The position numbers and the translations under genes were made by a program. Positions 1,970-48,159 of a DNA stretch of 64,000 nt are shown in pieces (the first letter of the stretch is position 1; every line of letters starts with the position of its first letter). Origin of the DNA: Lingula anatina (taxonomy: Eukaryota > Animalia > Brachiopoda); contig CM120644.1 in NCBI GenBank assembly GCA_051362555.1, forward strand, positions 1,868,954 to 1,932,953. Direction: 5' to 3'. Under the pieces are notes generated by a model, which saw nothing but the letters and a program-made list of their open reading frames with translations, had not been told where the DNA came from and did not search any database.

Positions 1970-2131
1970 GTATTCATTACGATCACAACTTTTTATCTGT
2001 ACTTTTTAATCATTTTTATTTCGATAATACTAATGGAATCTATGCACAGTGTACGACTGTATGCTGGCGTTATGTATGGTAGTGTTCGTGTGTATGTAGG
2101 AAATTAACTGCGTTGCTCTGTTTTTTCCCAG

Positions 2132-2560
2132 GCCCACCAAAAACCAAGATATCGCAGAGGACGAACTGCGAGCTCACTGTGAGAGGGAGGTAGGTGAAAG
2201 TCCATCGTGTTAGGTACACATACAGTATGCAGTGCACTGTTTTCCGTTACCAGATCATTGTAATGCAGAGAGCAGTTCTGAGACTATAAGTAATGGTGGG
2301 GATTTACGAAAGATGCCAAATGACCTATTAAAAAAATCAAAGAATAGGGCCCAGTGAGAGGAAACGGTCGCCATATGACGTCATTTAGACTACATGTATA
2401 TATGGTTTGTGTTCGGGCTTTCTGCTTACTGTACTATGGATATAACATCCCTCTAATTCCCCATTTCAGCTGTTGGATCACATGTGGCCGGACCACTATG
2501 TCGTCATGGAGACGTTCCCCAGGGTGGGGATCAGGCAAAAGGTGACTATGTTTTGACCTA

Positions 2561-2607
<47 letters not shown>

Positions 2608-2835
2608 GTCATGGAGACGTTCCCCAGGGTGGGGATCAGGCAGAAGGTGAGGCCGGAGAAAGTTGTTTAAAAGTGGCTGTGAGTTTTAATTATTTGAAAT
2701 AGTGAGCGTGTTTATGTGTGTCATCTCGCCTAGAGGTTTTTCCACACCTTAATGCATGAATAAAATATATGATTATTTACCCGTCATTTTTCTTGACTAA
2801 CGCCCATTTGCCACCCACTTATTTTAACTGAAGAC

Positions 2836-2881
<46 letters not shown>

Positions 2882-3082
2882 GATAGCTTTTCTTAAAGAA
2901 CAAAGGGGCATTGGATCTGTTTACGTAAACTGTTAAATATGTTTTTAAAGCTGCTTTATGTACTTCTTATCAGAGTATCAATAATTCTGTCATGTCAGGT
3001 ATCCAAAGAAGAACTCCTGAAAAATGCCAAGAAAATTCTCGTGGATTCCGGTAAATTGAAGTGGAGTGAGATGAACCAGTGA
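2132..3082 (+). CDS. Last three exons of acyl-CoA synthetase (ACSF2-like) copy 0
   Basis: Exons 2132-2189, 2470-2541 ([24 protein letters not shown]) and 2999-3082 ([27 protein letters not shown]), all GT-AG flanked and nearly identical to copy B exons 16-18. Confidence 0.8.
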
Positions 3083-3103
3083 AAACAGTGGCGACAAGAC
3101 AGG

Positions 3104-3320
3104 AGTAGTTACATCCGTACTATACGGGAGAAAAGAATTCCACTTTTTTCTTTTGTTATGTTACATCATTTGAACAATGAAAAACCTATACCGGACAATG
3201 GGGATGTTTACAAAATAAACAAACAATTTTTTTAATGTAAACAAACGAGACTCCCTATTTTTGTTTACGTTTCACTATGGTAACGGATGACGTCACAGAA
3301 CGGGCCTGGGCATGTAGGAG
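3104..3320 (+). repeat. Polinton left terminal inverted repeat
   Basis: Reverse complement of 17083-17299; two substitutions seen by eye. Confidence 0.95.
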
Positions 3321-3477
3321 TAATGTTTACGTTTTGTCATAGCGACGGATGACGTCAAGCGCAATTCTTTTGTTAGGCGTGTTGCATGTTCAGGCGTGCA
3401 ATTTGAAGGCTATATATGTTGGAATGGTCAAATCAAACTCCAATTCACTGACCTAAGTTGTACGTTCGAACATCAAA

Positions 3478-4353
3478 ATGTCGCAGTTCTTCAAACTTGG
3501 TGAAGATAGTCTGTTGTCGATATGCAGAAGCAAACAGGGGGTCCAGTTGGTCGTCTTCAGCGATTTGAAAACGTTGAACAAGATCCGGATGCCTCGAGAA
3601 GCATGGGAAGATTTTAAAAACACCCTGCCTTCCGTCCAAACTGCTATGTCTACCGATACTGAAATAGATGATCAGCTGGGGGAAAACTATAATGTCCGTG
3701 TGCTGTACGACATTGGTAAGGAGGAATCTGTGATGAAGCTAGCCTACGCACCGGTAAGTGCGTCGTATGAAGCGATGTACGATGTACAATTTGACAAACG
3801 CACATTGGAGACGTTGCTGACCAAAATGCCTGAAATCAATGCAGCGCTGGGTGAAATCCCACCGACAACAGTCAGCGAGGAGCCGGAAGAAAGTGATGAA
3901 AGAATGTTTGGAGCCGAAAACGATGTAGAAGCAGACGTAGTATTAATTCATCTCATTTACGTGAAGTTGATCGTGCAGGAAATAGAGGCCATGCGTTACA
4001 GGTACTGTACTGGGTGTATAGCCGCGCACGGTTCCCAAAAGCATCACATGGATGGGTGTATGGCCGACTGGTCAGTTTCGGTACATGTGTACTTCACCAG
4101 GGCAAAAGCTGCTGTAAGTCATGAGGTAATACTGAAGGCCTACAAGTTAATGAAGAAAAAACTGAGACAACAAGAAAACCCATACATACTTTCCGTCATC
4201 ATGACTGCATCGCTGCTGGAAGATTTTCGGAAAGACGTGGAGGAACCGAGCCATGCGTTATCCCCTGATACCGTCCTCGCTAGTATGGTCTACGATGTGT
4301 GCAAGATTGTATATGGCGAACATTTGTATAAGGCGATAAAAAAATCAGAATAA
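3478..4353 (+). CDS. Polinton ORF1: putative tandem PC4-like ssDNA-binding domains plus Cys/His Zn-binding motif (291 aa)
   Basis: ATG ORF with a TATA-like TATATA at about 3411. Two segments fit the PC4 pattern (FKLGEDSLLSI...IRMPREAWEDFKNTLPSVQTAM; QLGENYNVRV...VQFDKRTLETLLTKMPEINAAL). C-terminal motif CTGCIAAHGSQKHHMDGC. The ORF is secure; the domain call is inference. Confidence 0.6.
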   Translation: MSQFFKLGEDSLLSICRSKQGVQLVVFSDLKTLNKIRMPREAWEDFKNTLPSVQTAMSTDTEIDDQLGENYNVRVLYDIGKEESVMKLAYAPVSASYEAMYDVQFDKRTLETLLTKMPEINAALGEIPPTTVSEEPEESDERMFGAENDVEADVVLIHLIYVKLIVQEIEAMRYRYCTGCIAAHGSQKHHMDGCMADWSVSVHVYFTRAKAAVSHEVILKAYKLMKKKLRQQENPYILSVIMTASLLEDFRKDVEEPSHALSPDTVLASMVYDVCKIVYGEHLYKAIKKSE

Positions 4354-4450
4354 ACTTTGAATTGAACAGAAAAAGACGCCGTATAATCTGTGTAGAATTA
4401 ACAAAGTTTGCATGGACATTAGCTAGAAGTGTGCGATGAAAGAAGACATT

Positions 4451-4655
4451 TGATTGGTTGATTATGACATCATATCTAAAAATAGATTTATATATGGAAC
4501 GTTAATTTGATGTGATGAAGACAATTTGATAGTAAAGAGTTGTTTACAAACATTTCATTGATTAAAATAATATGCGATTTGATTGGTTGAAAAAATGTTA
4601 TTTGTTGTTAGCTGTAACGTGATTGGTTAGAAAAAATGTAATACATGATTGGTTG
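4451..4655. promoter_or_regulatory. Cluster of four inverted CCAAT boxes (TGATTGGTT) upstream of the BIR/integrase/capsid gene block
   Basis: TGATTGGTT at about 4451, 4580, 4620 and 4646, in the only long gap in the rightward gene block. Confidence 0.55.
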
Positions 4656-4730
4656 AAATAAACACACCGCTTACCCGAAAAATTACAAAAATGTGTTTGC
4701 GATCATTTTTCTTTATACTGAGTAGACAGA

Positions 4731-5198
4731 ATGGATGATGATCATCCGGAAACCGATTCCGAGTTGGGGGGTGTGCTATATGGACCGGTCATGCCATACG
4801 CAAAAGAAGAAGACCGAATTTTGAGTTTTCTTAATTGGCCGGGCAAACTACTTATCAACCCAATCCCTTTAGCCATTAGTGGATTTTACCGAGACCCACG
4901 AGCGTCTAGACACGATGATGTGGTTCGTTGTTTTTACTGCGATTTGTATCTAAAGAATTGGGACCCGCTGAGAGATGCCCCAGATGTCGAACACGAACGA
5001 CACTCTCCTCAATGCACGATGAGTACGGTTGGAAAAAGAATAAATCAACGATTTAATGTACCACTTACACCTAAAAAGCGATTTCAAATGGTTAGGCTTT
5101 TTGTGGTAGATGACACACTGCCCGTTGTACATACCGCCAGTACAGTGATGTCGCTACTAAATACCCATTACGATGAAACTGGTGGGAACTATAAATAG
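4731..5198 (+). CDS. Single-BIR-domain IAP/survivin-like protein (155 aa)
   Basis: EEDRILSFLNWP...LAISGFY...DVVRCFYC-x17-H-x6-C gives the BIR zinc-ligand pattern plus the RxxSF-WP and LAxxGFY hallmarks. No RING domain. Confidence 0.9.
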   Translation: MDDDHPETDSELGGVLYGPVMPYAKEEDRILSFLNWPGKLLINPIPLAISGFYRDPRASRHDDVVRCFYCDLYLKNWDPLRDAPDVEHERHSPQCTMSTVGKRINQRFNVPLTPKKRFQMVRLFVVDDTLPVVHTASTVMSLLNTHYDETGGNYK

Positions 5199-5259
5199 AG
5201 ATAGGATAAAGAAAGAAAACATTTAGCTTGTTGGAATTGATCCATAACTGTATGAGAAA

Positions 5260-6366
5260 ATGCCGCGTAAGAAAAAAACCAAGAAAGGGCAGAACAAAAC
5301 AGATGCATATCTGCATAGTTTGTATACCAACCCGTCAAACCCTGTAAGCTTTGGTGGTATGTTAAAACTGTATAATGCCGCACGAAAAGATGGTATGAAA
5401 ATCAGTCGTCAGCAAATCAAAGATTTTCTAGCCGCCCAAGATGTGTATACATTACATGCACCGGTTAGGAAACAATTCAGTACAAATCGCGTCATGGTGA
5501 ATTATATTGATGATCAATGGCAGGGTGATCTGGCAGACCTCAGTAAGATAGCAAAATACAATAAAGGAATGAAATTCTTGTTAACCGTGATTGATATATT
5601 TTCAAAATACGCATGGGCAGTTCCAATCAAATCAAAATCAGCGGACAATGTATTAGATGCGTTTAAAGGCATTGTTTCCGAAGGCAGAAAGCCACTGGTA
5701 CTTCAAACTGATGCAGGGACAGAATTTACAAATAGAAAATTTCAAGCGTACCTCAAGAGTCAAGGCATAGCTTTTTTCACAACAAAATCGGAAAGAAAAA
5801 GCTCTGTGGTTGAGCGTTTTAACAGAAGCATAAAGACCCGTTTGTACAGATATTTCACAGCAAACAGTACGTTAACGTATGTGACAGTCCTAAACGACTT
5901 GATGACAGGATACAACCATGCAAAACATCGAAGCATAAAGATGGCCCCAATCGATGTGAATCCACGAAATGCAAACATTGTGTGGAAAAACTTGTATGGA
6001 AAAGTAAAAATAGGGAAGTCGGGGTTTAAATTTCAAGTAGGAGATACTGTAAGATTAAGCAAAACACGCACCCCTTTTGCAAAAGGATACGAACAGGGAT
6101 GGACACAGGAAATATTTACAATATCAGAAAGATTAAACAGAACACCTCCTGTGTATAAGGTGAAAGATTACAATGGAGAGCAAATCGAAGGTGTCTTGTA
6201 CGAACCAGAAATGATTAAAGTTATTAAAACTGACGACGTGTATCGTATCGAGAAAATTTTAAAGACCCGTGGAAAGGGGAAAACTAGGCAGCTTTTTGTA
6301 AAATGGGTAGGTTATGATGATCGTTTCAATACTTGGGTAGATTCGAAGGATGTACAAAAAACATAA
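5260..6366 (+). CDS. Retroviral-like (rve) DDE integrase with C-terminal chromodomain (368 aa)
   Basis: Catalytic triad in WQGDLAD / LQTDAGTEF / VVERFNRSIK. C-terminal YRIEKILKTR...LFVKWVGYDDRFNTWV is chromo-like. Confidence 0.95.
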   Translation: MPRKKKTKKGQNKTDAYLHSLYTNPSNPVSFGGMLKLYNAARKDGMKISRQQIKDFLAAQDVYTLHAPVRKQFSTNRVMVNYIDDQWQGDLADLSKIAKYNKGMKFLLTVIDIFSKYAWAVPIKSKSADNVLDAFKGIVSEGRKPLVLQTDAGTEFTNRKFQAYLKSQGIAFFTTKSERKSSVVERFNRSIKTRLYRYFTANSTLTYVTVLNDLMTGYNHAKHRSIKMAPIDVNPRNANIVWKNLYGKVKIGKSGFKFQVGDTVRLSKTRTPFAKGYEQGWTQEIFTISERLNRTPPVYKVKDYNGEQIEGVLYEPEMIKVIKTDDVYRIEKILKTRGKGKTRQLFVKWVGYDDRFNTWVDSKDVQKT

Positions 6367-6404
6367 ATGTAACCGGTACCAGACAAAACACCTCATTTGA
6401 AAGG

Positions 6405-7136
6405 ATGGCGTCGTCTTTTCATGTTATCTTACCGTCAAACAGCAGCTTTAAGTATTTCCCTAACAACAGACCCGAGACATTCCAAACAAAACTGTCATCG
6501 TCACTTAATCTAGAAGGGGATTTTGAAGTCGCATTGGTTGAACTACAGTACCCATATTCGTGGAACAATATTCAGAACGGTGTCTTGACATATTACGACG
6601 GGGTAAAAACAAATACGTTAAACATTACTGCAGGGTATTATCCGACAGTTGGCGATCTAATAACTGCAATTCACGATCAGTTAACAGCTATTGGAAAAAC
6701 AAACATAACGTTGGGTTATAACATTATCAGCAGACGAGTTACAGTTCACTTGAAATCGGGGGCCTACATCGATGTTGCGGGAGACATGGCGACAATGCTA
6801 GGGTTTAAACCGAATGTCAGAGTTAATGCAGATACAATAGCCCCTTACCCTCCAAACATGACGTTAGGGTTCAATTCCCTCTACGTGTATACAGATATTA
6901 TACAAAATCAGATGGTAGGGGACGCTTCGGCAAATTTACTGAGGATTGTTGATATTAATGGTGTTTACGGACAAGTGGTCACAAAAACATTTGACAATCC
7001 CATTTACATCCCTCTAAATCGTCGTCATATTGACACAATTCGAATAGATATAAGTCGTGACACGGGTGAACTTGTGCAGTTTGATAGCGGGAAGGCTATA
7101 GCGACACTTCATTTTCGCAGAAAGAGTTTATTATAA
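6405..7136 (+). CDS. Minor capsid protein (penton, PX)
   Basis: ATG at 6405. FHVILPSNSS..YFPNN...F.T.L...L.LEG.FEVAL.E..YP and LYVYTDII..Q.VGD....LLRIV are typical of Polinton minor capsid proteins. Confidence 0.85.
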   Translation: MASSFHVILPSNSSFKYFPNNRPETFQTKLSSSLNLEGDFEVALVELQYPYSWNNIQNGVLTYYDGVKTNTLNITAGYYPTVGDLITAIHDQLTAIGKTNITLGYNIISRRVTVHLKSGAYIDVAGDMATMLGFKPNVRVNADTIAPYPPNMTLGFNSLYVYTDIIQNQMVGDASANLLRIVDINGVYGQVVTKTFDNPIYIPLNRRHIDTIRIDISRDTGELVQFDSGKAIATLHFRRKSLL

Positions 7137-7138
7137 AA

Positions 7139-7516
7139 ATGGATCCTGTATACGTAGCGTTAGTAAAAAGATACGAAGCACAGGTGGGCGGAGGGTCCAT
7201 TCATAAATTTAGAGGTACAAGGGTACAATCACGAATGCAAAGAGGCAATGGTAGGTTATTTCAACCTAGACACGCTGAAATATTGCATGTAGATAGACAG
7301 AATAACCCGAAACGCACAGAACAACCCGCAGTAAAGAAGAAACGTAAAAGAAGTCGTACTCCGAAGTCAAAACTTTATGTTAATGGTGACGTCATAAGGA
7401 AAACGTTAAACGCCATGACTATAAAAAAGAACAACACACCTAAAGCAACCAGAAGAGTAAAAGGTAGACGACCAAAACAGTCACGTTCATTCAAGGCACA
7501 AGAAACGAATTTTTAG
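7139..7516 (+). CDS. Small basic protein, putative virion core/DNA-condensing precursor (125 aa)
   Basis: YEAQVGGG..FRG....QRGNG glycine motifs and an Arg/Lys-rich C-terminal half; lies between penton and major capsid genes. Confidence 0.65.
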   Translation: MDPVYVALVKRYEAQVGGGSIHKFRGTRVQSRMQRGNGRLFQPRHAEILHVDRQNNPKRTEQPAVKKKRKRSRTPKSKLYVNGDVIRKTLNAMTIKKNNTPKATRRVKGRRPKQSRSFKAQETNF

Positions 7517-7518
7517 AC

Positions 7519-8838
7519 ATGAATAACACTGAAAATGATCCCATCGTCAGAACTGAACTGGATATATTTTCGAATATACGCGATCATATGCAGACCGATC
7601 TGTTATCGAGCTATTTTGAAGAAGTGAGACCTCTCACTGCGGTTGCAGATGTGAGCCCCGTAATAGAATTTGTCATTAAAGGAACACCCGACGAATATAT
7701 CGATACGACGCAAATCAACCTATACGTTGAAGGTCAAATTGTTAAAGCAGATGGAACTGACATCGATGCAGGACAAAACACGTCAGTTGTGAATAACACG
7801 CTACACTCCCTATTTACAGCGGTCGACGTAGAGTTGAATGACCATTTAATAACTGTGGGACAGAATACATATGCCTACCGCGCATACTTGGAAAATTTAT
7901 TGTATTATGGGAAAAATGCTAAAGAATCGCTTTTAACTTCGGAAATGTATTACCAAGATACCGATGGACTGATGGATGACGTTGATGTAGACGGAGACCC
8001 AGGGAATGAAGGATTTAAGGCTCGTAATTCTTGGTTTCAAAGGAGCAGGAGGGTTGAAATGTATGGACCGTTAAAAATTGACTTAGCCACTCAAAACAAG
8101 CTTCTTCTGAATCAAGTGGACGTACGAATCAAGTTGCGAAGGACGTCGCATGCATTTTGCCTTATGTCGGACACGGATGCACAAGAACAATTTCTGATCA
8201 AAAACATATCCCTTTTTGTAAGGAGAGTCAAAGTATCTGATCGGTTGAAACTGGCTCATGAGAACATATTAGCCAAACACGTAGCATGTTATCCCATGAC
8301 TAGAAGGGAAGTCAAAGTTATCAATTTACCCAATGGTGTAAGAACGGCTCATATTGACAATGCGTATTTTGGACGCATGCCTAAACGTATTCTTTTGGCT
8401 TTGTTGGAAGATGATGCTTTTTCGGGAGATTATACTAAGAATCCGTTTAATTTCAAACACAACGATTTAAGGCAACTTCGATTAATGGTGGCGGGGGAAC
8501 AAATACCATTCAAACCTTACAATTTTGATTTTAGTGTTCAAGGGGGGTTAAACTACTTAAGGGCGTATTATGATCTTTTGTCAGCAGTTGGAGCGGCAGA
8601 CGGAGAGCACAGCATCGATATTGATAGAACTCAATACCTGAATGGATATGTTTTATTCGCTCACGATCTAACCCCTGATCAAACCTTTGACAATTATATA
8701 ACTCCAACAAAGCAGGGTTCGCTTAACATCGATCTGGAGTTTGGACAACAGATTAACAATATCGTGTTGCTTGTCATGGCAGAATTTGATTCAGTTATCA
8801 AAATTGACCAACGTAGGAGCGTTTTTGTAGAATATTAA
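7519..8838 (+). CDS. Major capsid protein (double jelly-roll, PY; 439 aa)
   Basis: ELDIF...QT, IEFVI, VNNTLHSLF, YAYRAYLENLL, GRMPKRI, NPFNFKH and GYVLFAHDLTPD motifs are typical of Polinton major capsid proteins. Confidence 0.92.
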   Translation: MNNTENDPIVRTELDIFSNIRDHMQTDLLSSYFEEVRPLTAVADVSPVIEFVIKGTPDEYIDTTQINLYVEGQIVKADGTDIDAGQNTSVVNNTLHSLFTAVDVELNDHLITVGQNTYAYRAYLENLLYYGKNAKESLLTSEMYYQDTDGLMDDVDVDGDPGNEGFKARNSWFQRSRRVEMYGPLKIDLATQNKLLLNQVDVRIKLRRTSHAFCLMSDTDAQEQFLIKNISLFVRRVKVSDRLKLAHENILAKHVACYPMTRREVKVINLPNGVRTAHIDNAYFGRMPKRILLALLEDDAFSGDYTKNPFNFKHNDLRQLRLMVAGEQIPFKPYNFDFSVQGGLNYLRAYYDLLSAVGAADGEHSIDIDRTQYLNGYVLFAHDLTPDQTFDNYITPTKQGSLNIDLEFGQQINNIVLLVMAEFDSVIKIDQRRSVFVEY

Positions 8839-8841
8839 AAT

Positions 8842-9369
8842 ATGAATACGAAGCAAATAGAATGCATTCTTCAGACTGATCCGGTTACGAGAACATGTTT
8901 TCAAGGGGTGTTTGCATCAGACGCGTTGCCCAAAAAGATATGGACTTATCCAGCATGCCTCGTGGCTAATACGGATCCTCACGATAAACCGGGCGTGCAC
9001 TGGGTTGCTTTTTACTTTGATGAACAGGGACACGGAGAGTTCTTTGACTCTTATGCGAAATCACCTTATTATTACAACGCAGCTTTTAAACGTTTTTTAG
9101 ATGAAAACTCTTTATCTGGGTGGAATTGTAACACTAGGACATTACAGAGCCTGTATACCAAAGTGTGTGGACAATACTGTATATATTACTTGATGAATAG
9201 GTCTCGTGGAAAAAAATTAGAACAGATACTTAGTAAATTCACCAGCGACAAACAGTTTAATGATATATTAGTGTATGATTATGTTAATGCACATTGCAAC
9301 ATACCCTACTGTGTAAACGCGTGTTTTCAAGTTTGTAGATCAAAGAAGTCACTAGGAATATTGTATTAA
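8842..9369 (+). CDS. Adenain-like cysteine (maturation) protease (175 aa)
   Basis: NTDPHDKPGVHWVAF (His), EFFDSY (Asp) and LQ......CGQYC (Gln/Cys). Confidence 0.93.
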   Translation: MNTKQIECILQTDPVTRTCFQGVFASDALPKKIWTYPACLVANTDPHDKPGVHWVAFYFDEQGHGEFFDSYAKSPYYYNAAFKRFLDENSLSGWNCNTRTLQSLYTKVCGQYCIYYLMNRSRGKKLEQILSKFTSDKQFNDILVYDYVNAHCNIPYCVNACFQVCRSKKSLGILY

Positions 9370-9434
9370 ACACATTTATTCGAGTAATAATAAAAATACA
9401 GCTGTGCAAATATGTTTTATGTTATTATTTTATT
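9365..9434. terminator. Convergent polyadenylation region
   Basis: AATAAA on + at 9389-9394; TTTATT (AATAAA on -) at 9375-9380 and 9429-9434, between convergent ORFs. Confidence 0.5.
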
Positions 9435-10196
9435 TCAATATATGTTGAATAAAGATAGTTTAGATTTTACTACATTTCCCGAATTCCTCTGAGTTGGCCG
9501 GGGAGCTAGTTTAGTTTTTGCTACATGTCCCGAGCCCATCTGAGTTGAACTGGAAGAAGTGTCCAACGACATAATCTGGTTGCGCCGCTTTACGTTTGAG
9601 ATGTTATTTAGTGGTACATTAAGACGTTTCAAACCCTTTAAAAATACAGTAAGCCCTGGCGGTTCGTAATTCCTACGGGGTACATACAGATCGTTAAACA
9701 AATCTACTACATTGCTTCCTTCGTACACTCTACCATTGTATTTCAACTCCCCTTGATCATTATACGACAGCACATTAGGTTGGTTAGACATGTATCTCAA
9801 AATTACGTTAGCTTTGCGACGCACACGCTGTGGTATTGCATCTAATATCTCGGCTTTAAGATGTAATACAGATCCAGCCTCTGACTTGACGGTGGGGGTT
9901 GCGGTTGCGTCAGCGGTGTCAACTCCAAGTTGTGCTTCTAATGGTTGTGACGAATTGTGCACAACAACTGCAACCGGTTCGCGTTTCCTCGCTTTACTCA
10001 GATATTGACTTTGAAGATCGTTGTAGATACTCATTTTTTCATCGAATGGTACATCGGTCCTTTGCAAGGTTTTCTTCATTTCATTTTCTAAACGTAGTGT
10101 TTCTTCGACAAAGGGGGAATAATTAGCGCTTACTCTCTGTTTCAAAGCATTCAGTTCGTTCTCGTTGATTAAGACCATTTTATTGAAGCCTGCCAT
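9435..10196 (-). CDS. Conserved Polinton hypothetical protein (253 aa)
   Basis: ATG ORF. LENEMKKTLQR.D...DEK..Y and GEL.YNG....GSNVVDL patterns resemble unassigned Polinton ORFs. Confidence 0.75.
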   Translation of the reverse strand: MAGFNKMVLINENELNALKQRVSANYSPFVEETLRLENEMKKTLQRTDVPFDEKMSIYNDLQSQYLSKARKREPVAVVVHNSSQPLEAQLGVDTADATATPTVKSEAGSVLHLKAEILDAIPQRVRRKANVILRYMSNQPNVLSYNDQGELKYNGRVYEGSNVVDLFNDLYVPRRNYEPPGLTVFLKGLKRLNVPLNNISNVKRRNQIMSLDTSSSSTQMGSGHVAKTKLAPRPTQRNSGNVVKSKLSLFNIY

Positions 10197-10503
10197 TTCT
10201 TGTTATCGGTTTTAGAATTGCCTTAACTGCACCCGGATTCCGTATCAAAATTATTTTTTTCCGCTGAATGGACACTTGTTTGGAAGCCAGCTGAACGATG
10301 ACGCGTTTAACCCTCCGTAATGCCGATTTTTCTGTCGCAGTCAGGGTAATATTTGTATTATATAATAGATTAGATGCGTAGTTACAGATAATTCTAACAA
10401 GATCGTAGGGTGAATTCTTAACAACGGCAGTTATCAATTTCTTGTCGGCTATGGAAAGCAAACTGACATGAGCATTGAATAACTTTTCTGTCTCAACTTT
10501 CAT
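10180..10503 (-). CDS. Small basic conserved Polinton protein (PW-like, 107 aa)
   Basis: ATG ORF next to the ATPase, with pattern NLLY..NITLT..EK..L...K..I..LA.......KK.IL. Confidence 0.65.
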   Translation of the reverse strand: MKVETEKLFNAHVSLLSIADKKLITAVVKNSPYDLVRIICNYASNLLYNTNITLTATEKSALRRVKRVIVQLASKQVSIQRKKIILIRNPGAVKAILKPITRNGRLQ

Positions 10504-10533
10504 GATACACCGCAGCGATGAAAATATGTTCAG

Positions 10534-11205
10534 TCATTTACATGTGTATGCGTAATGCGTTTCTCCGGGAAAGATATTGGTGCGCAGACGAATGCAATCC
10601 GCAGTGTTCTGTCTGAGGTCTATGAGTAAATAGCTATGGGCACTGGATGTGGCGTCTTTATAAACATTTATAAACGATTTTAGATCGTTGGGATACATTT
10701 GCATTCCTAGTGTTTTGACTTGCAGGGAGTCACGGGGGTTTTTAAAAAGAACCAAATAATGACAGTTCAACGATATGGTTCGCGCGTGCTTTTCTTTGGG
10801 AAATAAATTTTGTACAATCAATACTACACTGATGTTACGATGGTGAGAGCCTTTTGTGAATAGGTCACGGATCCGGGCATCGTCGCTACATTCGGCAAAA
10901 AGATCATCGAGTACTATTAGATTATTTAATTGAGAATCAAAAAAGGTGGCGTCGGTTAAGTCGGTCGGAATACCTTTAAAGAATGTTACTGTGTCAGGGT
11001 GCTCACTCTGCATTTCATCAAACAAGGGCTGCCAAATATCGTAACAATATATTATCTTTTGTGGCGACGGTGAAATCATTGTATCGGCATTTGATAATAG
11101 CCTTTTAATCCATACTGTTTTTCCTGAACCAGTGGGCCCTGCTAAAAGAGCAGTGAAAGGGTGTTTTAGATGTGTATCGTACATGTCCAAAAACGTAATT
11201 GGCAT
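10534..11205 (-). CDS. A32/FtsK-like genome-packaging ATPase (223 aa)
   Basis: Walker A GPTGSGKT, Walker B LIVLDD, FTKGSHHRNISV..IVQN and RTISLN.HY.VLFKNPRD. TATAAA lies about 30 nt upstream on the minus strand. Confidence 0.95.
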   Translation of the reverse strand: MPITFLDMYDTHLKHPFTALLAGPTGSGKTVWIKRLLSNADTMISPSPQKIIYCYDIWQPLFDEMQSEHPDTVTFFKGIPTDLTDATFFDSQLNNLIVLDDLFAECSDDARIRDLFTKGSHHRNISVVLIVQNLFPKEKHARTISLNCHYLVLFKNPRDSLQVKTLGMQMYPNDLKSFINVYKDATSSAHSYLLIDLRQNTADCIRLRTNIFPGETHYAYTCK

Positions 11206-11510
11206 TTATCGGCTTGACGGGTTTACTTTATAACTTTTATCACGTGTTATACACAAATGATATATTATTTCCTATGGCGAAAAGTGATAAAAATTGCAGT
11301 AACATTGATAACCGTTTTTCATTTTCAAGCTAAAGTTCGTAAGTTCGGGGGAGGGTACTTAGTGACACGGTGCATTCAGTTCTCATGCATCGTACACAAA
11401 GAGGCAATCGCCATTAATATTAATGTGTGCTGTTTCGTCTCTATGGGCCATTCAATAGCGTGTGATTGTGCTTGTGCACATTCTTTTGTGAAGAGATTAC
11501 GTTGAGAGCG

Positions 11511-11930
11511 ACATTGAAAGTACTAAAGAGACTGGTGTTGTTTCTGTACACGGGGGGTACAATAGAAGACCACAGCACGTACATTATTAACAACGTTTTC
11601 CCCCGAAGACGATATTATTGATAGTATTCGATTTGTACGGCAGGTACATTATTAACAACATTTCCCACGAAGACGATATTATTGATAGTATTTGATTTGT
11701 GTTATGTACTACTACATTTTATTGAGTGCAACGCTGTGTGACTATGTAATGAAATTTAAACGCGTATCAATCGATACAATAGAACAACTGTAGTCACACC
11801 CATGCGTGTTGTTGTAAGGGATTACATCAAGAGAGTGGCATTGAAATTATAAGAGGCTGGTGTTGATTCTGTGAACAGGGAGGACAATATAAGGCCAGGG
11901 CATATGAATAATCAACAGCATTTTCTCACG
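11511..11930. repeat. Direct repeats in the divergent ATPase/PolB intergenic region
   Basis: A ~58-bp unit at about 11579-11637 and 11644-11700; a ~90-bp diverged unit at about 11511-11602 and 11838-11930. Confidence 0.7.
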
Positions 11931-12369
11931 GTTGTCACCCTACATTTTCCCGCGAACAACACAATGGTATACGTAATTTTATGTGACGTGGGATATTTTT
12001 ATTGGTTAAAAGTTTTATTTCATTATTCTTAATATTAAACATCCTGGCTTCGGCGTCATTTGAGCATTAGCGTCTGTGGAGGCATGTCGCGGCAATACAT
12101 TGTAGAAGGTCCCATGGAGAGCCAGTGTAGGAGCACACAAAATGTAAGTTACTGAACATTCAGTCAATTTAATTCACGTTAAAATTTTTGTATATATCGT
12201 TAACATTGTGTCTAAAATGTTTAGCTGTCTGAAAACGGGGGACTGATTTGATTTTTTGATCTTTATAGATATCACGCACAGTGGCTATTGCTTGAGCTTG
12301 AGATTTCCTTACCCTCACCCCTTACATTACCCCTCCTTTTATTACATGTGCCTTTAACACTATTTTATC

Positions 12370-15300
12370 ATGGGTGACACAGAGTCTGAGGGATCGGTTT
12401 CTAATTTGTGGGAAGACATGAGTAATGAGGATGATTTATTGAATGCGGAGCATGAGAGTGGTGATGAGTTATGGGCTGATTCAAATGTAACAGACGATCA
12501 GCTGGTAAATCATGTAGATCAGTTCGAAGGTGAACTCGGGATGGGGTTAGATTATAGAAGGTTTTATAATCTGCGACGGGTCAATGAACGGCGCATGAAA
12601 AAATTTTCAACTGTAAACACGGACTATCAGCTCACATTCTCCCATTTAGAAAATAGAAGTTTAAATTCTATGATCCCGTTCCTACGTGAGCTTTTCCAAA
12701 ACATATTTGACGACTTAGTGCAGAACATGCTTCCTCATGATTTGGTCAGAATTGTCTTGCAATCTGACACGTTAGAGTATCCCATATCAATAGCGTTCAC
12801 GAGGGTATCTGAATTTACAGTGGATCTCTTTTTGGACGAATTGATAAGAGTATTACAGTCTCACGAGGAGTTTAGACTTGACGCATCTATTATTTTAACT
12901 GTGTGTCATGTCAGTATGCCACGCCCTGGTGGAGCAAGATTAAAAAGAGGGTCTATGGGTCTGCAGAGCTTTCTCCACGCAAAGCGTTCAGTCATTCAAA
13001 TACGTAACGGGGCGGGAGATCAGTTGTGTTTAGCGCGTGCATTGGTTGTAGCTATGGCCAAAGCAGATAATGACCCCGAATATGCAACAATCGTTGATAA
13101 CCGTTGTCGTGAACAATTAGAAAGAGCCCAAGACTTGCATACAAGAGCTGGAGTACCGTTAGGTCCTTGTGGTGTCCCTGAAATTAAACAGTTTCAGTCA
13201 TATTTGAGTAATTATCAAATATCTGTGTTTTCTGGAGATCACTTTATGAGTTTAATTCATAAAGGACCTTCAGCTTTGAAGGAGCTGTTTTTATTTTATC
13301 ATAAGGGGCATTATGATGTCATAACTTCGATAACAGGTTTCATGGGTAGAGCGTACTATTGTACGGAATGCAATATAGGTTTTGATCACATGGGTGACCA
13401 TTCGTGCGAAAAATATTGCGAGAGGTGTAAAAAGGATTCGTCATGCAAGTTTGAAAATTGGCGTCATTGCGATCAGTGTAGCAGAAATTTCCTCTCTGAC
13501 AGCTGTTTTAGAAATCATACACTTGTACCCGAACAAGGTAAATGGTCAACCTGCCGACGATTTACTCTTTGTAAAAAGTGCACTAAATTTGTCGATCATA
13601 AAAGGGAAGAAAAACATGTGTGTTACACTTACAAGTGCAAGTCATGTAATAAGTACGTCAAAGACGGTCACTTATGTTACATGCAAATTGATAGAGATGA
13701 CCTTGGTGAGGATGATGACGATTTACTTATGTATATCGATGAGAATCCTGCTGCCAATTTCATTGGTAAGTTTAAACCTGGTTCAAAACGCCCTTTCATA
13801 TTTTTTGATTTTGAAGCGCAGCCATCGCATGTTCATACCCCTAATCTAGTGGTTGCTCACAGGGTATGTCATCACTGTCTAAATTTAGACGTAACCCCCA
13901 CTAGTACATGTGAGCTATGTGGCAAAAATGAACATGTGTTTAAGGGGCCGTCGTGTGTTGATGAATTTTGCAAATGGGTATTTGAAGATCAGAGTTTTGA
14001 ACGTGCACAAGGTAAAAGGAAAAGGAAAGGAAAAAACAAAGGAGGTCGCAGTAAACGAATGAATCCTGGAGCATCGTTATGTTTTGATGGTGCTGATTAT
14101 GAATGTGAGAATGACGAGGAGGATATGATCATACATAATGGGGCTATATTGTTGGCACACAACATGTCTGGTTATGATGGTTTTTTCCTCTTAAAATGGC
14201 TCAAAGACCAATGTATCGTTCCTGAGGTGATATTACGGGGCGCCAAGGTGCTTTCTATTAAGGTGGGCGATATAACCGTTATTGATTCTTACAGCTTCCT
14301 CCCCATGGCACTCAACAAACTTCCCGCTGCATTTGGTCTAGATGAATCCCTGTCAAAGGGCTACTTCCCCCACTTCTTTAATACCCCTGAAAACCAAGAC
14401 TATAGGGGTAAAATGCCCGCCACTAATTTCTATGGCTCTGATTCAATGTCTACCGGTGCGAGAGAAAAATTTTTGGCATGGTACAATGATCAGGTTAGTC
14501 AAAACTATATATTTGATTTCCAAAAGGAAATACTCATATACTGCCGCATGGACGTCACCATTCTTCGGCAAGCATGTCTCCGATTCAGGAAATTGATGCT
14601 TGATATAACAGTTGCGAATGGTGTGGAAATTGATGTTTTTTACAGATCTATCACTATAGCCAGCGCATGCAATGTTGTGTTCAGATCTTTATTTCTTATG
14701 CAAAACACGATCGGCATTATTCCAGCACAGGGGTATAAGCCGAAAAACAAAACGTCCGTGAAAGCAGCTAAATGGTTGCGGTATAGGGCGGAGCGTGACA
14801 ATGTCTTTATACAGCATGCTCATAATCAGGGAGAAAAGAAAATAGGAAAGTTTGTCGTTGATGGTTGGGCGTCAACAACTAACACTGTCTACGAGTATCA
14901 GGGGTGTTTTTGGCATGGGTGTCCAAAATGTTACAACAGTTACAATATCAACAATGTCAATTTGATGACAATGGGTGAGTTGTTAGAAAGGACGGTGGAT
15001 AAGAAGCATGCGCTTCAGTCTTTAGGTTTCAACTACATAGAGGTATGGGAGTGTGAGTTTGACAGGGTCATACGGGAGGATGCTGGCGTGAAAGAAATAG
15101 TGGATAGCGTGAACGTTGTCGATTGTATTGATCCTCGTGAAGCCTTTTACGGGGGCAGGACGAACGCAGTCAAGCTTTTTTGTCAGGCAGATCAGGGACA
15201 GAAAATACGTTACATTGACGTGTGTAGTCTATATCCCTATGTCAACAAATACAAACCATACCCCCTCTGTCACCCCACCATCATAACCGAAAACTTTGGT

Positions 15301-16763
15301 CCTCTTAGCGAGTATGAAGGTTTAGTCAAATGTACTATTCTTCCTCCTCACGGCCTTTACCATCCTGTCCTTCCCTATAGATCACAAGGGAAACTAACAT
15401 TTCCTCTTTGTCGCACATGCGCTGACACACTGCAGCAGTCACGGTGTGAGCATAATGACGAAGAGCGTTGTATGACAGGTACATGGGTTACGGTCGAGTT
15501 AAAAAAGGCCGTTTCCAAGGGCTATGTGATTAAACAAATGCACGAGGTCTGGCATTATGATCATGTTAGCGAATACAACCCAATCACCAAAACGGGGGGT
15601 CTTTTCTCTGACTATATCAATACATTTCTCAAGCTCAAACAAGAGGCCAGCGGCTATCCACCAGAGTGCACGACACCACAGCTCAAAAGAGACTACATTG
15701 CTTCCTACTTCACCAAAGAGGGCATTCGACTAGACCCTAACCAAATTAAGAAGAACCCAGGTCTGAGGGCTTTGTCTAAACTGATGCTTAACAGCTTTTG
15801 GGGTACGTATAAACAGAGGTAGCATTCATTTATTACATACACTATGTCTGAGGTTCACGCATGATTCCAATATTTGTATTTGTCATTCACCGTAAATAAT
15901 GGTAATAACATCGTACGTACATTTGCATATTACATCTGTCCTTGATGCTTTATTATGTTTACACCTTGTTTATTCACATCATACAATATTACAGTACTTC
16001 TCATCCGTGCATTTTCACTATCCTTACTCGCATAGTTATGTTATTATTTTTTATGTTTGTTATTTCAGGCAAATTCGGTCAACGAATGAACATGACACAG
16101 TCCGAATACGTCACCGAGGTGGACGAGTACTTTGCACTGCTGTTGAACAAATCCGTCGATGTCACCAACGTGATGTTTTTAACCGATGATATGGTGGAGG
16201 TACACTACAAACACCAATCTGAGTTTAATGAATGCTCCGATAAGACCAACGTCGTCATAGCCGCGTACACCACCGCCCACGCTCGTATGGTTCTTTACAG
16301 CGCCATAGAGGTCCTGGATCGAAACGTTCTTTACTTTGACACGGACTCAATCATCTTCCTGGACGATGGCAGTGCACAAACCAACGCCTACCTAAATACC
16401 ATCATGGGCAGCTACCTCGGCGACTTCACCGATGAGCTAGATGAGGGGGACCACATCACCACCTTCGTGTCGGGCGGGCCGAAAAACTACGCATACGTTA
16501 CCGCAAAGGGAAAGACAATTTGTAAAGTGAGGGGTATCTCACTGAATTATGAAACCTCACAAATAGTGAACTATGAGACTTTACGTAACATGGTACACGG
16601 TATAGGTCCGAAAGAGGTGTCAACAACTACACATCATAAAATTGTGCGAGACACTCTGAATAAAGAACTGCTCTCTAAAAGGGAGGATAAAGTTTACCGG
16701 GTTGTGTACACTAAACGTGTCATTCAGCAAGACTCATTTGATACACTACCATACGGCTATTAA
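12370..16763 (+). CDS. polB: Protein-primed family B DNA polymerase, two exons (12370-15802 + 16069-16763; about 1375 aa)
   Basis: Exonuclease motifs FFDFE, AHNMSGYD, YCRMDV; VSR-like insert VDG....VYEYQGCFWHGC; motif A DVCSLYP; motif B KLMLNSFW-G-KFGQ restored by GT-AG intron 15803-16068; motif C YFDTDS; PKNY. Confidence 0.93.
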
Positions 16764-17082
16764 CTTTCATAAATTGCCGAGTAGTGTTGTTTATATATTT
16801 ATCATTTTTCATTTTGTTGTACATACATTGTTTTGCTGTTTTAATCTGTACATGTAATTGATAGATTCACTATACTCACTTTGCACTGCATTATGCTTAA
16901 TTATTATCTTTTAGTAAATTAGACATTTATGTACATTGTTTTAATGTTTTAATGTGTATATACAACTGTTCACTATGATCAACTTACAATGCAATTATGT
17001 ATTTCAATAAAATCATGTTTTATTTACAAATTTACTTGTTTACTACTACATTGTGCCTTTTTCCTTAGTAATTCTTTAAAAT

Positions 17083-17299
17083 CTCCTACATGCCCAGGCC
17101 CGTTCTGTGACGTCATCCGTTACCATAGTGAAACGTAAACAAAAATAGGGAGTCTCGTTTGTTTACATTAAAAAAATTGTTTGTTTATTTTGTAAACATC
17201 CCCATTGTCCGGTATAGGTTTTCCATTGTTCAAATGATGTAACATAACAAAAGAAAAAAATGGAATTCTTTTCTCCCGTATAGTACGGATGTAACTACT
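17083..17299 (-). repeat. Polinton right terminal inverted repeat
   Basis: Reverse complement of 3104-3320. Confidence 0.95.
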
Positions 17300-17764
17300 G
17301 ACAGGCCTGGAATTGTCTCACATCCGGGACTTCTGACATTTGCGAGATTTCTCGCGAGACGAGATTGAAACTTTCCAGTGACCAATATCGATTTGTGCTA
17401 GTATAAACAGAAAAGAAAAAAGGGAAGTTAATTTAAGAAATGAAAAAAACAAAATTTATCGAGATAATGTTGATGTAATTGACGTTTCTGAAGTAAATTC
17501 AAATGACAGTTTTATATGGCGAAATATCCAATGACATGACATCTTTCATCTTTTTCAAAATGAATTTTATAAGAATGGCAGGATCTCAAGAAAAAAACTA
17601 TTAGAACATGTGGCACTTATTTTGTTAAATGAACCAAGATGTGTACGTAAAAAATCGTAAATGAAATTCTTGCTGTGATTGTAAAGGTTTTAAATGGTCT
17701 TTAGGTTTCTGTGTTGCTGCCTTTAACGGGTTCATTATTGTGAAAGAAAATAATGTTTCAATTT

Positions 17765-31221: not shown

Positions 31222-33507
31222 ATGAGAGAGAGAGGGAGACAGACAAAGGGAGTCTTGTCCAAAGCTTTCTAAGTTAATCAAACAAACTTCATTATAACTA
31301 TAGTTGTGTAAAATGATATTCCTTCTATATAGAGTTCAGTGACCCTGAAGATGACCATGAAGATTTTGCCTTCAATAAAGTTATTTCCTGGGCGTCTATT
31401 AGAAAAAACAATGTTACCAATATGTCAAAAAATCTTCAGCCATATTGGTTTCAATAAGCTGGTCTATTTCTTCGTATTACAGGTGAAAATAGTTGATGCA
31501 AACAACAAGATCGTTCCTCCAGGCGTGGAAGGGGAAATATGTGTGCGAGGGGTGTTCATGTTCAGTAGTTATTACGGTTCTGAAGACTTGTACAGGAAAG
31601 TGGTGTCTCCGTCTGGTTGGTACCACACTGGGTATGTTATGTGTTAAATGGGACAACGCGTTTAATGAGTTGAAACAGCACAATGGGTGAATGTGATAGT
31701 TGTGACAACACACTTGGTGAGTGTGATAGTTGTGACAACACACTTGGTGAGCGTGATGGTTGTGAAAAAACACTTGGTGAATGTGATAGTTGTGACAACA
31801 CATTGGTGAGTGTGATAATTGTGACAACACATTGGGTGAGTGTGATAGTTGTGAAAACACATTGGGTGAGTGTGATAGTTATGACAACACACTGGGAGGG
31901 AGTGATGTTTGTGACTTTGCAGTGTGAGGTTGTCAAATGTGTGACATATCGTAGTGCATAATATAACTGCAACTAACACCCTAAATATGTTTTAAAATGT
32001 TTATATGAACTTTGATGAAAGAAATAAGACAAGTGGGGTGTTTGCGAAGCGTGTGCTTATCCCGATCCAATTAATCATTTTCTATTCCACACCCCAGAGA
32101 CATTGGTACGATGAATGAATACGGGTTTATGTACTACACTGGACGGAAATTTCATGTACTCCATTTTTCTCGCTGGGGCGACAAGGTTTATCCTGCTGCT
32201 ATAGAGACTGCAGCAGCAAAACATCCTAAAATCAGTCTGGCACAGGTGAGAGAGAGAGAGAAAGAGAGAAAGAAAGGCCTGTAGGGGAACGGTTGTGGGG
32301 AAGTCTGGAGCACACTCTCTAAAACAACTCGACTAACTCCTTTTGGTATAAGCAACGTCATTAATACCCCTGTACGAAAATTTCCATTAATAATATGATA
32401 TCAGTACTTACAACTGTATGACTCACGACATATATTATAGAAATACACGCATGATCGGAAGAGTCGAGTGGTCGTTTACGAACGTTTGTGTTCTGAAACA
32501 GGACATTTTGTCATGAAACAGTGATAATCATAGCTATAATATAATCAAAGGAAAAAACGGCCCTGTTTCTGAAAATGCACGCACCTCTATATCGCTTACT
32601 GTTGTAATTGTTCTTGAAAGGTGCTCCCGACCATCACAAGGATGCTCATTATATCCATTGCCTCGGAAATCAATGACATATATCGACAAAAGGGCTCACT
32701 TTTCTGGGAACGGAACGCATATTTTATTATTATAATCATTATAATTATTTTTATTATGATAAAGATGATGAAGATGATGATGATGATGATGATGATAATG
32801 ATGATCTTTTTCCTTGGTTTAGGCAGTTGGGTTTAGAAAACCTGGCGAAGATGACCTTGATACCATCATTCTGTGTGTTATGTAAGTAACCGTATGAAGT
32901 GGATGTTCAATCTTTAAAATACGCGTACGTATCTAGCTGCAAAATCTGCCAAAATGATTAAGTACTACATGTACATGCATATCTATACAAACCTCTCGCG
33001 AAAATGCCGTTGACTATAGCCCCATTCAGAATAGCGGTCTTACTAGTCCGAAGTTCAAATATGGCGACCTACCACAAAGCTTGCCGTCTAATCCGCTAAT
33101 AAGCACTGAATAGATATCCCGTGGGGAAGTATTCAAGTGGGTCCGCCATATTTGACCCTCAGACCAATTAGTCCCCTATTCTGAATGGGCCTATGACAAG
33201 AGCTCTTCAGCGACTTATTTGACTCGTGAATTTATGACAACATTTGGATATCCATAGGTGCATTAGTAAGTTTAACATAATTTGACGGTTATCAACATAA
33301 AGTTATAGTTACTATACGAACTGTAGGGCCTACAATTATTTTGCCGCAGTCCATAAAGCAACCTTACATTTTACGCTGAGTCATTCCACACTCACCGTCC
33401 TGGTATCATTATAAACAAGATTGACAGTGTTGTAGTGTTTAATAGGACAGACATATTTGGAGGAATGACATCGAATGTTCGCGTGTGCGTGCGTGCTAAC
33501 GCGAGCA

Positions 33508-33545
<38 letters not shown>

Positions 33546-35280
33546 TGGGTGCGCTCAAATGTGTAAAAACGTATGTAAGAAGATGAATGAATGTGTGCGT
33601 GGGTGCCTGTGCGAAAAGGCATGCTTGATATATTTCTAAAACGTTTTCTCTTCTATTTCTCCAGACCTATCCAGGGCCAAAATATAACAGAAGGTGAGCT
33701 GCGATCTCATTGCAAGAGCGAGGTGAGTATGAGCCATGATGGTGGAAAATCCAGTGAGTTACGTAAAATCCAATGAATTATGACCTCAGTAAGAGTAAAA
33801 AAGCTGGTGATTTTGCGAGCACTTAAGAAACAAAAGGAGGCATGTCATTCAATTGTGCTGATTGCATTTAGCAAGAGTCCCCCACAGAGTTGGGTCTATC
33901 CTTGCACGTAGGTCGCTGGTGTCTTTATGACCTTTATGAGAAGGGGGTCTTAGTCTGTCCCTATGTTGATTATACTTTAAGAATCTTTAAACATCTAATG
34001 CACCGTACGTTTAGGAAAAAAAACCTGGATTAACTTTGAATGCAGGAATGGGGTCGTTGACCATTGGTAAGTACGTGAAAATTGTCGTTTTTTTCAGGAT
34101 AATCCAATTTTTGGCCAAAACGAAGAGTTATTATGACTTTAACGTATTTTAACGTTCTTATTTCTAAATCAAATTGGAATAGTTTAGCTCATGAATTTCT
34201 CCGTCACTGAAATGCTCCTTTTGTGTTTATTTATGTCATCATTCCATTATGACTGCAGCTGAGAACTCCTCATTTGCCCAATTATACCATCCACGTATTG
34301 TTGGCCAGTGATGCAACATCTAGCGTTATTCGGGCATAGTTGCGACGATTACTTTTTGTCTTGGTGCAACGGGCGTAAGCAGGGAGAGTAAACCTGGCGC
34401 ACGGACGTCAGGCGTTGCGGTTTAAGACAGTCGTAGCCGAGTAAATTTACGCCCTGTTGGTGCAACCGGGCCCAGATGCTTAACGTGGGATTGAACACTG
34501 TACGACACTGTATAATTTGTCGTGTTATCTGCCCATGTGGTGACGTCATTTAATTTCGGATCAAGTTAGGCTGGGTGTGAACACCCCATATTTGACGCCA
34601 CACTCATGATTCTTCTCTCCTGTTGTTTTTAACTGTTGGATTAAATGTGGCCGAACGTAATAAACAGATCGAAGAATAGGGACAAGTGAGAGGTAACGAT
34701 CGCCATATGACGTCATTTAGTCTATATATGGTTTGTGTTCGTGCTTTCTGCTTACTATACTATGGATATAACAGCCCGTAATTCCCCATTTCAGCTGTTG
34801 GATCACATGTGGCCGGACCACTATGTCGTTATGGAGACGTTCCCCAGGGTGGGGATCAGGCAGAAGGTGAGGCCAGAGAATGATGTTTAAAAGAGGCTGT
34901 GAGTTTTAGTTATTTAAAAAAAGTGTGCGTGTTTGTGTGTGTCAACTCGTCAAGAGTTTTTTCTCACCTTATTAATGCATGAATAAAAATTATTATTATT
35001 TAACCGTCATTTTGCTTGCCTAACGCCCATTTGCCACTTATATGTACAGTATATATATATATATATATGGTATTTGTGACCTTGGATGGTTTTTTCGTAA
35101 AGAATAAAGGGGCAATGGATCTGTTCACGTGAACTGTTATTATGTTATTATGTACGTCTTACATGTGTCAGAGTATCGATAATTCTCTTCCTTCAGGTCT
35201 CCAAAGAAGAACTCCTGAAAAGTGCCAAGAGTATCCTCCTGGATTCCGGTAAATTGAAGTTGAGTGAGATGAACCAGTGA
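21031..35280 (+). CDS. Acyl-CoA synthetase/AMP-binding enzyme (ACSF2-like) copy A, 18 exons, about 607 aa
   Basis: Exons 21031-21059, 21193-21376, 25854-25988, 26319-26372, 26620-26735, 27644-27697, 28074-28185, 28388-28483, 28909-29105, 30008-30105, 30461-30531, 31058-31165, 31483-31631, 32098-32245, 32823-32881, 33665-33722, 34795-34866 and 35197-35280 sum to 1824 nt in frame. Motifs [44 protein letters not shown]....QK. Confidence 0.88.
21970..24112. mobile_element. Kolobok-like non-autonomous element in intron 2 of copy A
   Basis: TTAA on both sides; imperfect TIR GGCCGGTGATAG / GGCCACTTATAG; absent from the equivalent intron of copies B and C. Confidence 0.55.
24218..25606 (-). mobile_element. 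Tc1/mariner element (1389 bp)
   Basis: 29-bp TIR CACACACTGGACAATAGAAGTGTCACCCC and TA TSD. Empty site GTAATTACATTAGAATG in paralogs (about 38810 and 63601). Confidence 0.95.
24391..25420 (-). pseudogene. Disrupted Tc1 DD34E transposase
   Basis: HTH and GRPRKTT in the 25019-25507 ORF; QDDNAPCH-...-SPDANTIENVW (D34E) and IIRSRGYATKY in the 24391-24756 ORF. The frame is broken between them. Confidence 0.85.
27214..27527. mobile_element. MITE with CCC termini and GCAGTAG/CTACTGC subterminal repeats (CACTA-like)
   Basis: CCCGCAAGAAAACGCAGTAG ... CTACTGCATTTTCGTGCGGG, flanked by ATT. Confidence 0.6.
29124..29221. mobile_element. ~100-bp palindromic MITE (CCCAGCAG termini)
   Basis: CCCAGCAGACAAACGACA ... 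TGTCGTTTGCCTGCTGGG with TA on both sides. Confidence 0.65.
31680..31900. repeat. 30-bp minisatellite in intron 13 of copy A
   Basis: GTGA(A/G)TGTGATAGTTGTGACAACACA(C)TTG, about 7 copies. Confidence 0.9.
33020..33193. mobile_element. Palindromic MITE; related copy at about 19158-19330, truncated copies at about 36285 and 59733
   Basis: CCCATTCAGAATAG ... CTATTCTGAATGGG; the core CTTGCCGTCTAATCCGCTAATA...GATATCCCGTGGGGAAGTATTCAAGTGGGTC is shared with 19215-19280. Confidence 0.7.
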
Positions 35281-35444
35281 AAACAGTGGCGACAAGACAG
35301 GCCTGGAATTGTCTCACATCCGGGACTTCTGACATTTGCGAGATTTCTCGCGAGACGAGATTGAAAGTTTCCAGTGACCAATATCGATTTGTGCTTATAT
35401 AAACAGAAAAGAAAAAAGGGATAATAATAATAATAATAATAATA

Positions 35445-35475
<31 letters not shown>

Positions 35476-47805: not shown

Positions 47806-47850
<45 letters not shown>

Positions 47851-48018
47851 CGTTATGGAGACGTTCCCCAGGGTGGGGATCAGGCAGAAGGTGACTATAT
47901 TCACTGTTTCGACCTATTCTGTGTGTGTGTGTGTGTATGTGTGTGTCTATGTCGTCATGGAGACGTTCCCCAGGGTGGGGATCAGGCAGAAGGTGACTAT
48001 ATTCACTGTTTTGACTTA

Positions 48019-48057
<39 letters not shown>

Positions 48058-48123
48058 GTCATGGAGACGTTCCCCAGGATGGGGATCAGGCAGAAGGTGA
48101 CTATATTCACTGTTTTAACTTAT

Positions 48124-48159
<36 letters not shown>

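Follow-up and report, generated by a model that had tools for sequence, protein, structure and literature searches.

The present study analysed a 64,000-nt stretch of the Lingula anatina genome (contig CM120644.1; the window), which carries an intact 14.2-kb Polinton (3104-17299) whose DNA polymerase gene is split by a GT-AG intron in catalytic motif B. The same motif was interrupted at several registers across distant Polintons, a pattern missed by an earlier reading made from the window's letters alone (the sequence-only reading). The data suggest that introns have probably been gained repeatedly at motif B of Polinton polymerases, where, we infer, a retention ratchet would hold them. The polymerase gene is laid out as follows:

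12370..15802, + strand: polymerase exon 1, with exonuclease motifs, Vsr-like domain, motif A and the start of motif B (PF03175, E 3e-37)
14887..15060, + strand: Vsr-like nuclease domain of the polymerase, core region (weak similarity to 1VSR at E 0.12, in which the FWH motif lines up)
15803..16068, + strand: GT-AG intron, 266 nt, phase 1, within the Gly codon of polymerase motif B
16069..16763, + strand: polymerase exon 2, with the remainder of motif B, motif C (YFDTDS, 16332-16349) and the C-terminus; stop at 16763
17006..17011, + strand: candidate poly(A) signal AATAAA, the sole AATAAA between the polymerase stop and the element end

The donor GT (15803-15804) directly follows TGG G, the acceptor AG (16067-16068) is followed by GC AAA TTC, and the splice joint can be slid by one base either way. 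Eleven GT/AG pairs restore the frame (donors 15741-15822, acceptors up to 16200), and only one of them, 15803/16068, keeps the NSFW-X-KFGQ motif colinear with intron-free relatives. Ends, frame and colinear motif thus agree with the 266-nt phase 1 intron that had been proposed from the letters. U2-type features were present, namely a GT donor, a pyrimidine tract, a YAG acceptor and a branch-like motif: the donor agrees at 8 of 11 bases with the U1-pairing consensus, CTTAC stands at 16023-16027, and the stretch between 16036 and 16066 is free of AG. T makes up 42% of the intron versus 29% of exon 1. An in-frame TAG at 15820-15822 closes a 1150-aa open reading frame (ORF; 12370..15822), and YFDTDS lies in exon 2, in agreement with the truncated product without the DTDS motif that the sequence-only reading predicted for unspliced RNA. 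Because motif C lies in exon 2, active polymerase would depend on host splicing, and replication would need it too, as the sequence-only reading had argued. Exon 2 is an open frame throughout, matches the DNA polymerase phrog_1907 (E 1.6e-14) and is 99% identical to Lingula anatina RefSeq XP_013396729.1, a 216-aa protein that covers the post-intron part alone; a PDB search with exon 2 gave no real match. Upstream of exon 2 its frame continues through 41 intron codons as far as an ATG at 15945 (15945-16068), giving a 272-aa ORF; such intron-ward extensions, common in relatives too, look like a by-product of T-rich sequence.

An Rfam search of the intron returned 0 matches at E<=1, its RNA folding was not unusual (z = -1.34), and no terminal inverted repeat was found in it; taken together, these results indicate neither a self-splicing intron nor an obvious mini-transposon, the first two showing no sign of the conserved RNA structure of group I/II self-splicing introns. 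Neither the 64-kb window nor the loci fetched contained a further copy of the intron. We also rejected the idea that the intron arose when GGT AAG codons of the motif itself were duplicated, since only 2 of 48 intron-free loci have these codons and the other registers would be left unexplained.

Relatives were compared in two protein samples, each limited to the best 120 homologs, drawn from 1584 long ones and, for exon 2, from 1808 short ones. Among the best long homologs, 111 were continuous through motif B, 5 ended in LNR-stop, the end expected from AG^GT after the Asn codon, 1 stopped four residues past Gly and 3 were of other kinds. Among the best short homologs, 50 started with hydrophobic, non-homologous residues followed by Gly-Lys-Phe, and 5 with such residues followed by Ser-Phe-Trp-Gly; the others comprised 1 fitting a register at -3 nt, 14 continuous proteins, 47 beginning past the motif and 3 of other kinds. 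The residue before Gly could be encoded by a YAG acceptor in all 50 of the intron-like short homologs (50/50), 12 of which read through with an insert of 23-48 residues. The intron-like protein rows are not independent, 60 rows forming 11 clusters at 80%.

At the DNA level, a search pattern made of the 13 codons before the site and blind to downstream sequence found 70 metagenome loci (near-copies among them) and 0 loci in viral contigs; scans of the viral contigs gave nothing close, and 4 distant loci there were not used. Motif B was continuous in 48 of the 70 loci, carried GT-AG introns of 62-132 nt in 18, had a broken acceptor in 1 and was unclear in 3. Nine of the 18 introns stand at the window's site, seven at -3 nt and two at -2 nt. 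The intron position, which the sequence-only reading had proposed comparing among related Polintons, thus recurs at the window's site in 9/70 loci and nearby in 9 more, and a fourth register, at a Ser codon (-8 nt), is implied by the proteins. Intron ends were conserved, interiors were alike only inside small groups, and the window's intron resembled none of them. The window's site is shared by polymerases about 52% identical, and one intron-free locus has 79-82% identity with the -3 group. The frame is open for 799-846 codons upstream and 224-227 codons downstream of the intron in L013, L025, L028 and L029, and in these four loci and the window the motif-B intron is the sole interruption over the at least 1000 codons examined. 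The first stop falls 3-29 codons past the motif's Asn in 18 of 19 motif-B introns, and one intron reads through. Locus L052, with an intron at the window's site, an intact donor and AA replacing the acceptor AG, is likely a decaying copy.

Raw RNA reads were mapped from seven of the nine runs offered under the species label, and joints were listed only from at least 3 reads upward. Expression was low, with 186, 23, 62 and 73 reads over 14.4 kb (about 100 of those of run X1 on host flanks), and the region 15450-16450 received 11, 4, 21 and 15 reads in four runs. Pooled depth over four runs was 12.74 in the exon 1 flank, 0.42 in the intron and 6.86 in exon 2. In run X8 the bin sums fit 2 reads that stop at 15801 and 3 that begin at 16068, and in run X7 they fit 2 that stop at 15801-15803 and 2 that begin at 16068-16069; these read-end positions are arithmetic on depth bins, not reported junctions. 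One X8 read enters the intron, to about 15924, and carries C15795T like the reads halting at the junction, which indicates that the expressed copy family has the intron. The reads stem mostly from copies 90-99% identical to the window's element. The data suggest that the window's intron is likely removed routinely by the host spliceosome.

A junction finder yielded 35 candidates, of which 7 were removed by a splice-signal filter, and the result was 8 distinct intron sites. Mean conservation at the 8 sites was 0.84 versus 0.63 expected (p 4e-5) and three of the eight lie within 3 nt of each other (p 1.25e-4), both p values being optimistic; conservation reaches 0.9 in about 1.6% of columns. Further GT-AG introns in relatives lie in the FWH-G motif of the Vsr domain (L015, L024), two codons ahead of motif A (L015, L024, L070) and in the Ser of motif A (L036, L040), with several more in L009, L036 and L063. 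The same Vsr-like pattern is present in 42 of 64 references, and the domain occurs in intron-bearing and intron-free polymerases alike. An apparent lack of the Vsr domain in the -3 group was an artefact of an overly strict pattern; the domain is there. In the accessible part of 10.1101/2023.08.22.554363, a Vsr-like nuclease domain is described in pPolB2, where its place is between the exonuclease and polymerase parts, and pPolB2 is reported from Brachiopoda.

For the trees, the blocks upstream and downstream of the site were aligned separately and the junction residues were excluded. A quick tree of 205 rows contained one clade rich in same-site introns, including named coral proteins; the -3 group stood amid intron-free kin, and the Ser-type rows were scattered. 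The clade tests left out NCBI gene models, which may be spliced, and rows without either block, and thus contained no Ser-type or -2 rows; near-copies were thinned, giving sets of 60, 58 and 33 rows. A single clade of all intron-bearing rows was rejected (approximately unbiased test, AU, p 4.85e-160, 33 rows). The window's intron may be either ancient or a parallel gain, and the differing registers speak for separate gains if introns did not slide.

The element that carries the gene has the marks of a Polinton/Maverick, namely inverted ends, a target duplication, a protein-primed family B polymerase and a retroviral-type integrase. Its other features are:

3098..3103, + strand: left target-site duplication GACAGG, 6 bp
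3104..3320, + strand: left terminal inverted repeat, 217 nt, starting AGTAGT, 99% complementary to the right one
3478..4353, + strand: 291-aa ORF without a family match
4731..5198, + strand: BIR-domain (inhibitor-of-apoptosis-like) ORF (PF00653, E 5e-14)
5260..6366, + strand: retroviral-type integrase with chromodomain (PF00665, E 2.5e-13; PF00385, E 4e-7)
6405..7136, + strand: 243-aa ORF without a family match, possibly a minor capsid protein, a guess from position only
7139..7516, + strand: 125-aa basic ORF without a family match
7519..8838, + strand: likely double jelly-roll major capsid protein (PF21738, E 0.0011, under the curated cut-off)
8842..9369, + strand: adenovirus-like cysteine protease (PF00770, E 4e-4, slightly under the cut-off)
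9435..10196, - strand: 253-aa ORF without a family match
10180..10503, - strand: 107-aa ORF without a significant match
10534..11205, - strand: packaging ATPase (PF04665, E 9e-8; PF02456, E 1e-5)
17083..17299, - strand: right terminal inverted repeat
17300..17305, + strand: right target-site duplication GACAGG

The integrase, ATPase, protease, capsid-like and BIR genes are each one uninterrupted frame; BIR-domain genes are a trait of large DNA viruses. A 1.2-kb gap with a 65-nt tandem duplication (11206-12369) separates the divergent ATPase and polymerase genes, and near 12268 an acceptor-like TTTATAG could mark an intron in the 5' untranslated region. A skip of 11472-11816 (343 nt; 4 reads in run X1) was not read as splicing, since its ends are not GT-AG. 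The Polinton is inserted in a host repeat (1970-3103, 17300-17618, 34655-35541, 47206-48963), of which empty copies lie near 35296 (GACAGG once) and near 48647. In run X1, 32 reads skip 3097-17300 and represent host-repeat transcripts spanning an empty site; an empty allele is unproven by these reads, because the flank is a repeat with those two empty copies. An inverted repeat of about 2 kb (1-1969 / 48964-50934, 99-100%) encloses about 47 kb including the Polinton and possibly belongs to a larger element that begins to the left of the window. Host tandem arrays (units of 8, 30 and 41 nt) and dispersed repeats occupy 31638-31943, 38854-39169, 45812-46251, 57756-59035 and 63647-63986.

Under repeated gain with retention, A/T-rich insertions, such as filler DNA left by break repair, could arise anywhere; one that fell in an invariant catalytic motif would survive only if spliced exactly and would be lost by exact deletion alone. 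Since exact splicing or exact loss would be the only outcomes there, introns would pile up in such a motif. The host spliceosome would remove the intron and full polymerase would be made; the protein expected from unspliced RNA, lacking motif C, we take for a by-product rather than a regulator. Several results weigh against this account. Non-monophyly of the intron-bearing rows cannot separate gain from loss, and a clade joining the window to the same-site group was not rejected (p 0.544 with 58 rows, p 0.191 with 33 rows). Three intron-free rows (L030, P0069, P0087) are nested in the same-site clade, which suggests that exact loss does occur. The Ser-codon register is implied from protein ends alone (10 proteins). 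With motif B excluded, mean conservation at the intron sites was 0.76 (p 0.025), a weak enrichment, and the enrichment p values are optimistic because the finder prefers conserved flanks and missed downstream introns visible in L036 and L063; it also dropped a likely real site in L063. The check for junction reads proposed in the sequence-only reading came out in part: the depth gap and the read ends fit 15802^16069, and no such joint was listed at the 3-read threshold in any of the seven runs. Use of the junction is deduced by depth arithmetic on about 5 reads from copies roughly 95% identical to the window's element, and the depth gap may also be compatible with an intron-free DNA copy.

Clustering could also have arisen by targeted cutting, in which a site-specific nuclease, encoded by a competing element or residing in the polymerase itself as its Vsr-like domain, would cut the conserved motif DNA; repair insertions would fall a few bases apart, and the spliceable ones would survive and resist recutting, in the way of intron-plus alleles in homing systems. 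The three DNA-level registers within 3 nt and the fourth at -8 nt are in line with such cutting, as are the other introns, which hit the FWH motif of the Vsr domain and motif A or its immediate surroundings, the Vsr-like domain of the gene itself, such domains forming a homing endonuclease family (PMC3239194, accessible part), and the break-linked parallel intron gains reported in Daphnia (PMC4202315, accessible part). We nevertheless consider it rather unlikely, as the Vsr-like domain is found in intron-plus and intron-minus polymerases alike and so does not sort them, and retention alone could also cluster the introns, given that about 1.6% of columns reach a conservation of 0.9. Likewise doubtful is its extension to a homing-like conflict among animal Polintons, where rivals' catalytic-motif DNA would be cut by a nuclease, perhaps the Vsr-like domain fused into the polymerase, and site-shielding introns would spread as immunity cassettes. 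Descent from a single ancient motif-B intron that later moved by a few bases in certain lineages and disappeared from most would suit the shared site in polymerases about 52% identical, the unrejected grouping of the window with the same-site clade and the losses suggested by the nested intron-free rows. It would require many exact losses (48/70 loci and 111 of the best 120 long homologs are continuous, although some of the latter are gene models that are maybe spliced) and, within an invariant motif, moves of 2, 3 and 8 nt that were each compensated, and the nearest relatives of the -3 group are intron-free; we regard it as unlikely.

The sequence-only reading had raised the possibility of a tissue-specific switch like that of P elements. 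Under such a switch, splicing would be limited to certain tissues, and a truncated repressor or degraded RNA would result elsewhere. The early in-frame stop, the premature stop or frameshift expected on retention of 18 of 19 introns, the imperfect donor (8/11) and the one read entering the intron could be taken as signs of such regulation. The intron is absent from most of the few informative reads, however, and the single intron read may be pre-mRNA or DNA. The switch found no support because the retention product differs among relatives, 12 read-through forms included; moreover, any position ahead of motif C would serve a switch equally, leaving the clustering unexplained, and 48/70 relatives have no intron in motif B. 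We therefore hold it to be quite unlikely. It is very improbable that the intron is an inactivating insertion, intron-like by chance, in a dead element: the failure of any joint to reach the 3-read threshold would fit, but the other genes are single open frames, the element ends are 99% matched, same-codon GT-AG ends recur in 9 unrelated loci and RNA depth drops across the intron.

The third intron of the P element makes a transposon enzyme dependent on host splicing, and its retention leads to an early stop. The Polinton intron is alike in lying in a transposon's enzyme gene that would need host splicing and in giving an early stop if retained, but a conserved truncated product was not found in Polinton relatives, where the stop position varies and read-through forms occur. 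Inteins and homing introns prefer conserved sites of DNA polymerases. The window's intron resembles homing group I introns and inteins (I-HmuI, I-Bth0305I; accessible part of PMC3239194) as an intervening sequence in a catalytic motif with a nuclease domain nearby, and differs in having neither self-splicing structure nor an internal gene, and in its several registers and unrelated sequences. As far as the accessible text of PMC4202315 goes, the parallel gains in Daphnia are similar in being independent, at homologous positions and linked to break repair, but concern host genes of one species, whereas here a mobile element across phyla is involved. Introners are described in dinoflagellate polinton-like elements in the available part of PMC12166617, and share with the present case spliceosomal introns within full-length Polinton-like proviruses. 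There they are copies of host transposon families, whereas the window's intron lacks a terminal repeat, is dissimilar to the introns of relatives and has no second copy in the window, and its site recurs across animal-associated lineages. Escape from the silencing of intronless genes (PMC8770142, accessible part) could favour an intron, though it does not predict the site.

The window's element agrees with Polintons/Mavericks that have Vsr-containing pPolB2, as described in the accessible parts of 10.1101/2023.08.22.554363, PMC8097293 and PMC8502044, in its inverted ends, 6-bp target duplication, integrase, polymerase and ATPase; the candidate protease and capsid-like genes and the putative Vsr-like insert would be further points of agreement. 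It departs from published Polintons, whose core genes are given as intronless in the passages available (so termed in 10.1101/2022.07.12.499685), since the window's polymerase and 18/70 related loci have a motif-B intron. No spliceosomal polymerase intron is mentioned in the available passages of PMC8502044, PMC12220804, PMC11296320, 10.64898/2026.10.13.758929 and 10.64898/2026.07.28.741278, and the word 'intron' does not occur in the coral polintovirus paper PMC11131425. Among the papers listed by searches aimed at Polinton introns, none describes the pattern in its title or in the opening of its abstract, and Repbase annotations may already note split polymerases. The warning in the sequence-only reading that ORF-based annotation would misjudge the gene was borne out: the 216-aa RefSeq model is the C-terminal part alone, and PMC8097293, in its accessible part, states that introns were not observed in intact elements and takes Genewise 'introns' as decay. 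A 900-aa ORF filter is applied in 10.1101/2023.08.22.554363, in the part available.

Intact Polintons would be classed as fossils by any survey that requires a long frame without introns or that reads gaps as a sign of decay, and the share affected in the metagenome sample is about a quarter (18/70, near-copies included). An intron in the replicase gene ties Polintons to host nuclear transcription. If the homing-like conflict were true, a virus-like element would be using spliceosomal introns for immunity. The origin and persistence of such introns is a question of long standing, and repeated gain at a short motif, together with close intron-plus and intron-minus kin, makes the Polinton polymerase a compact test system for both their origin and their persistence.
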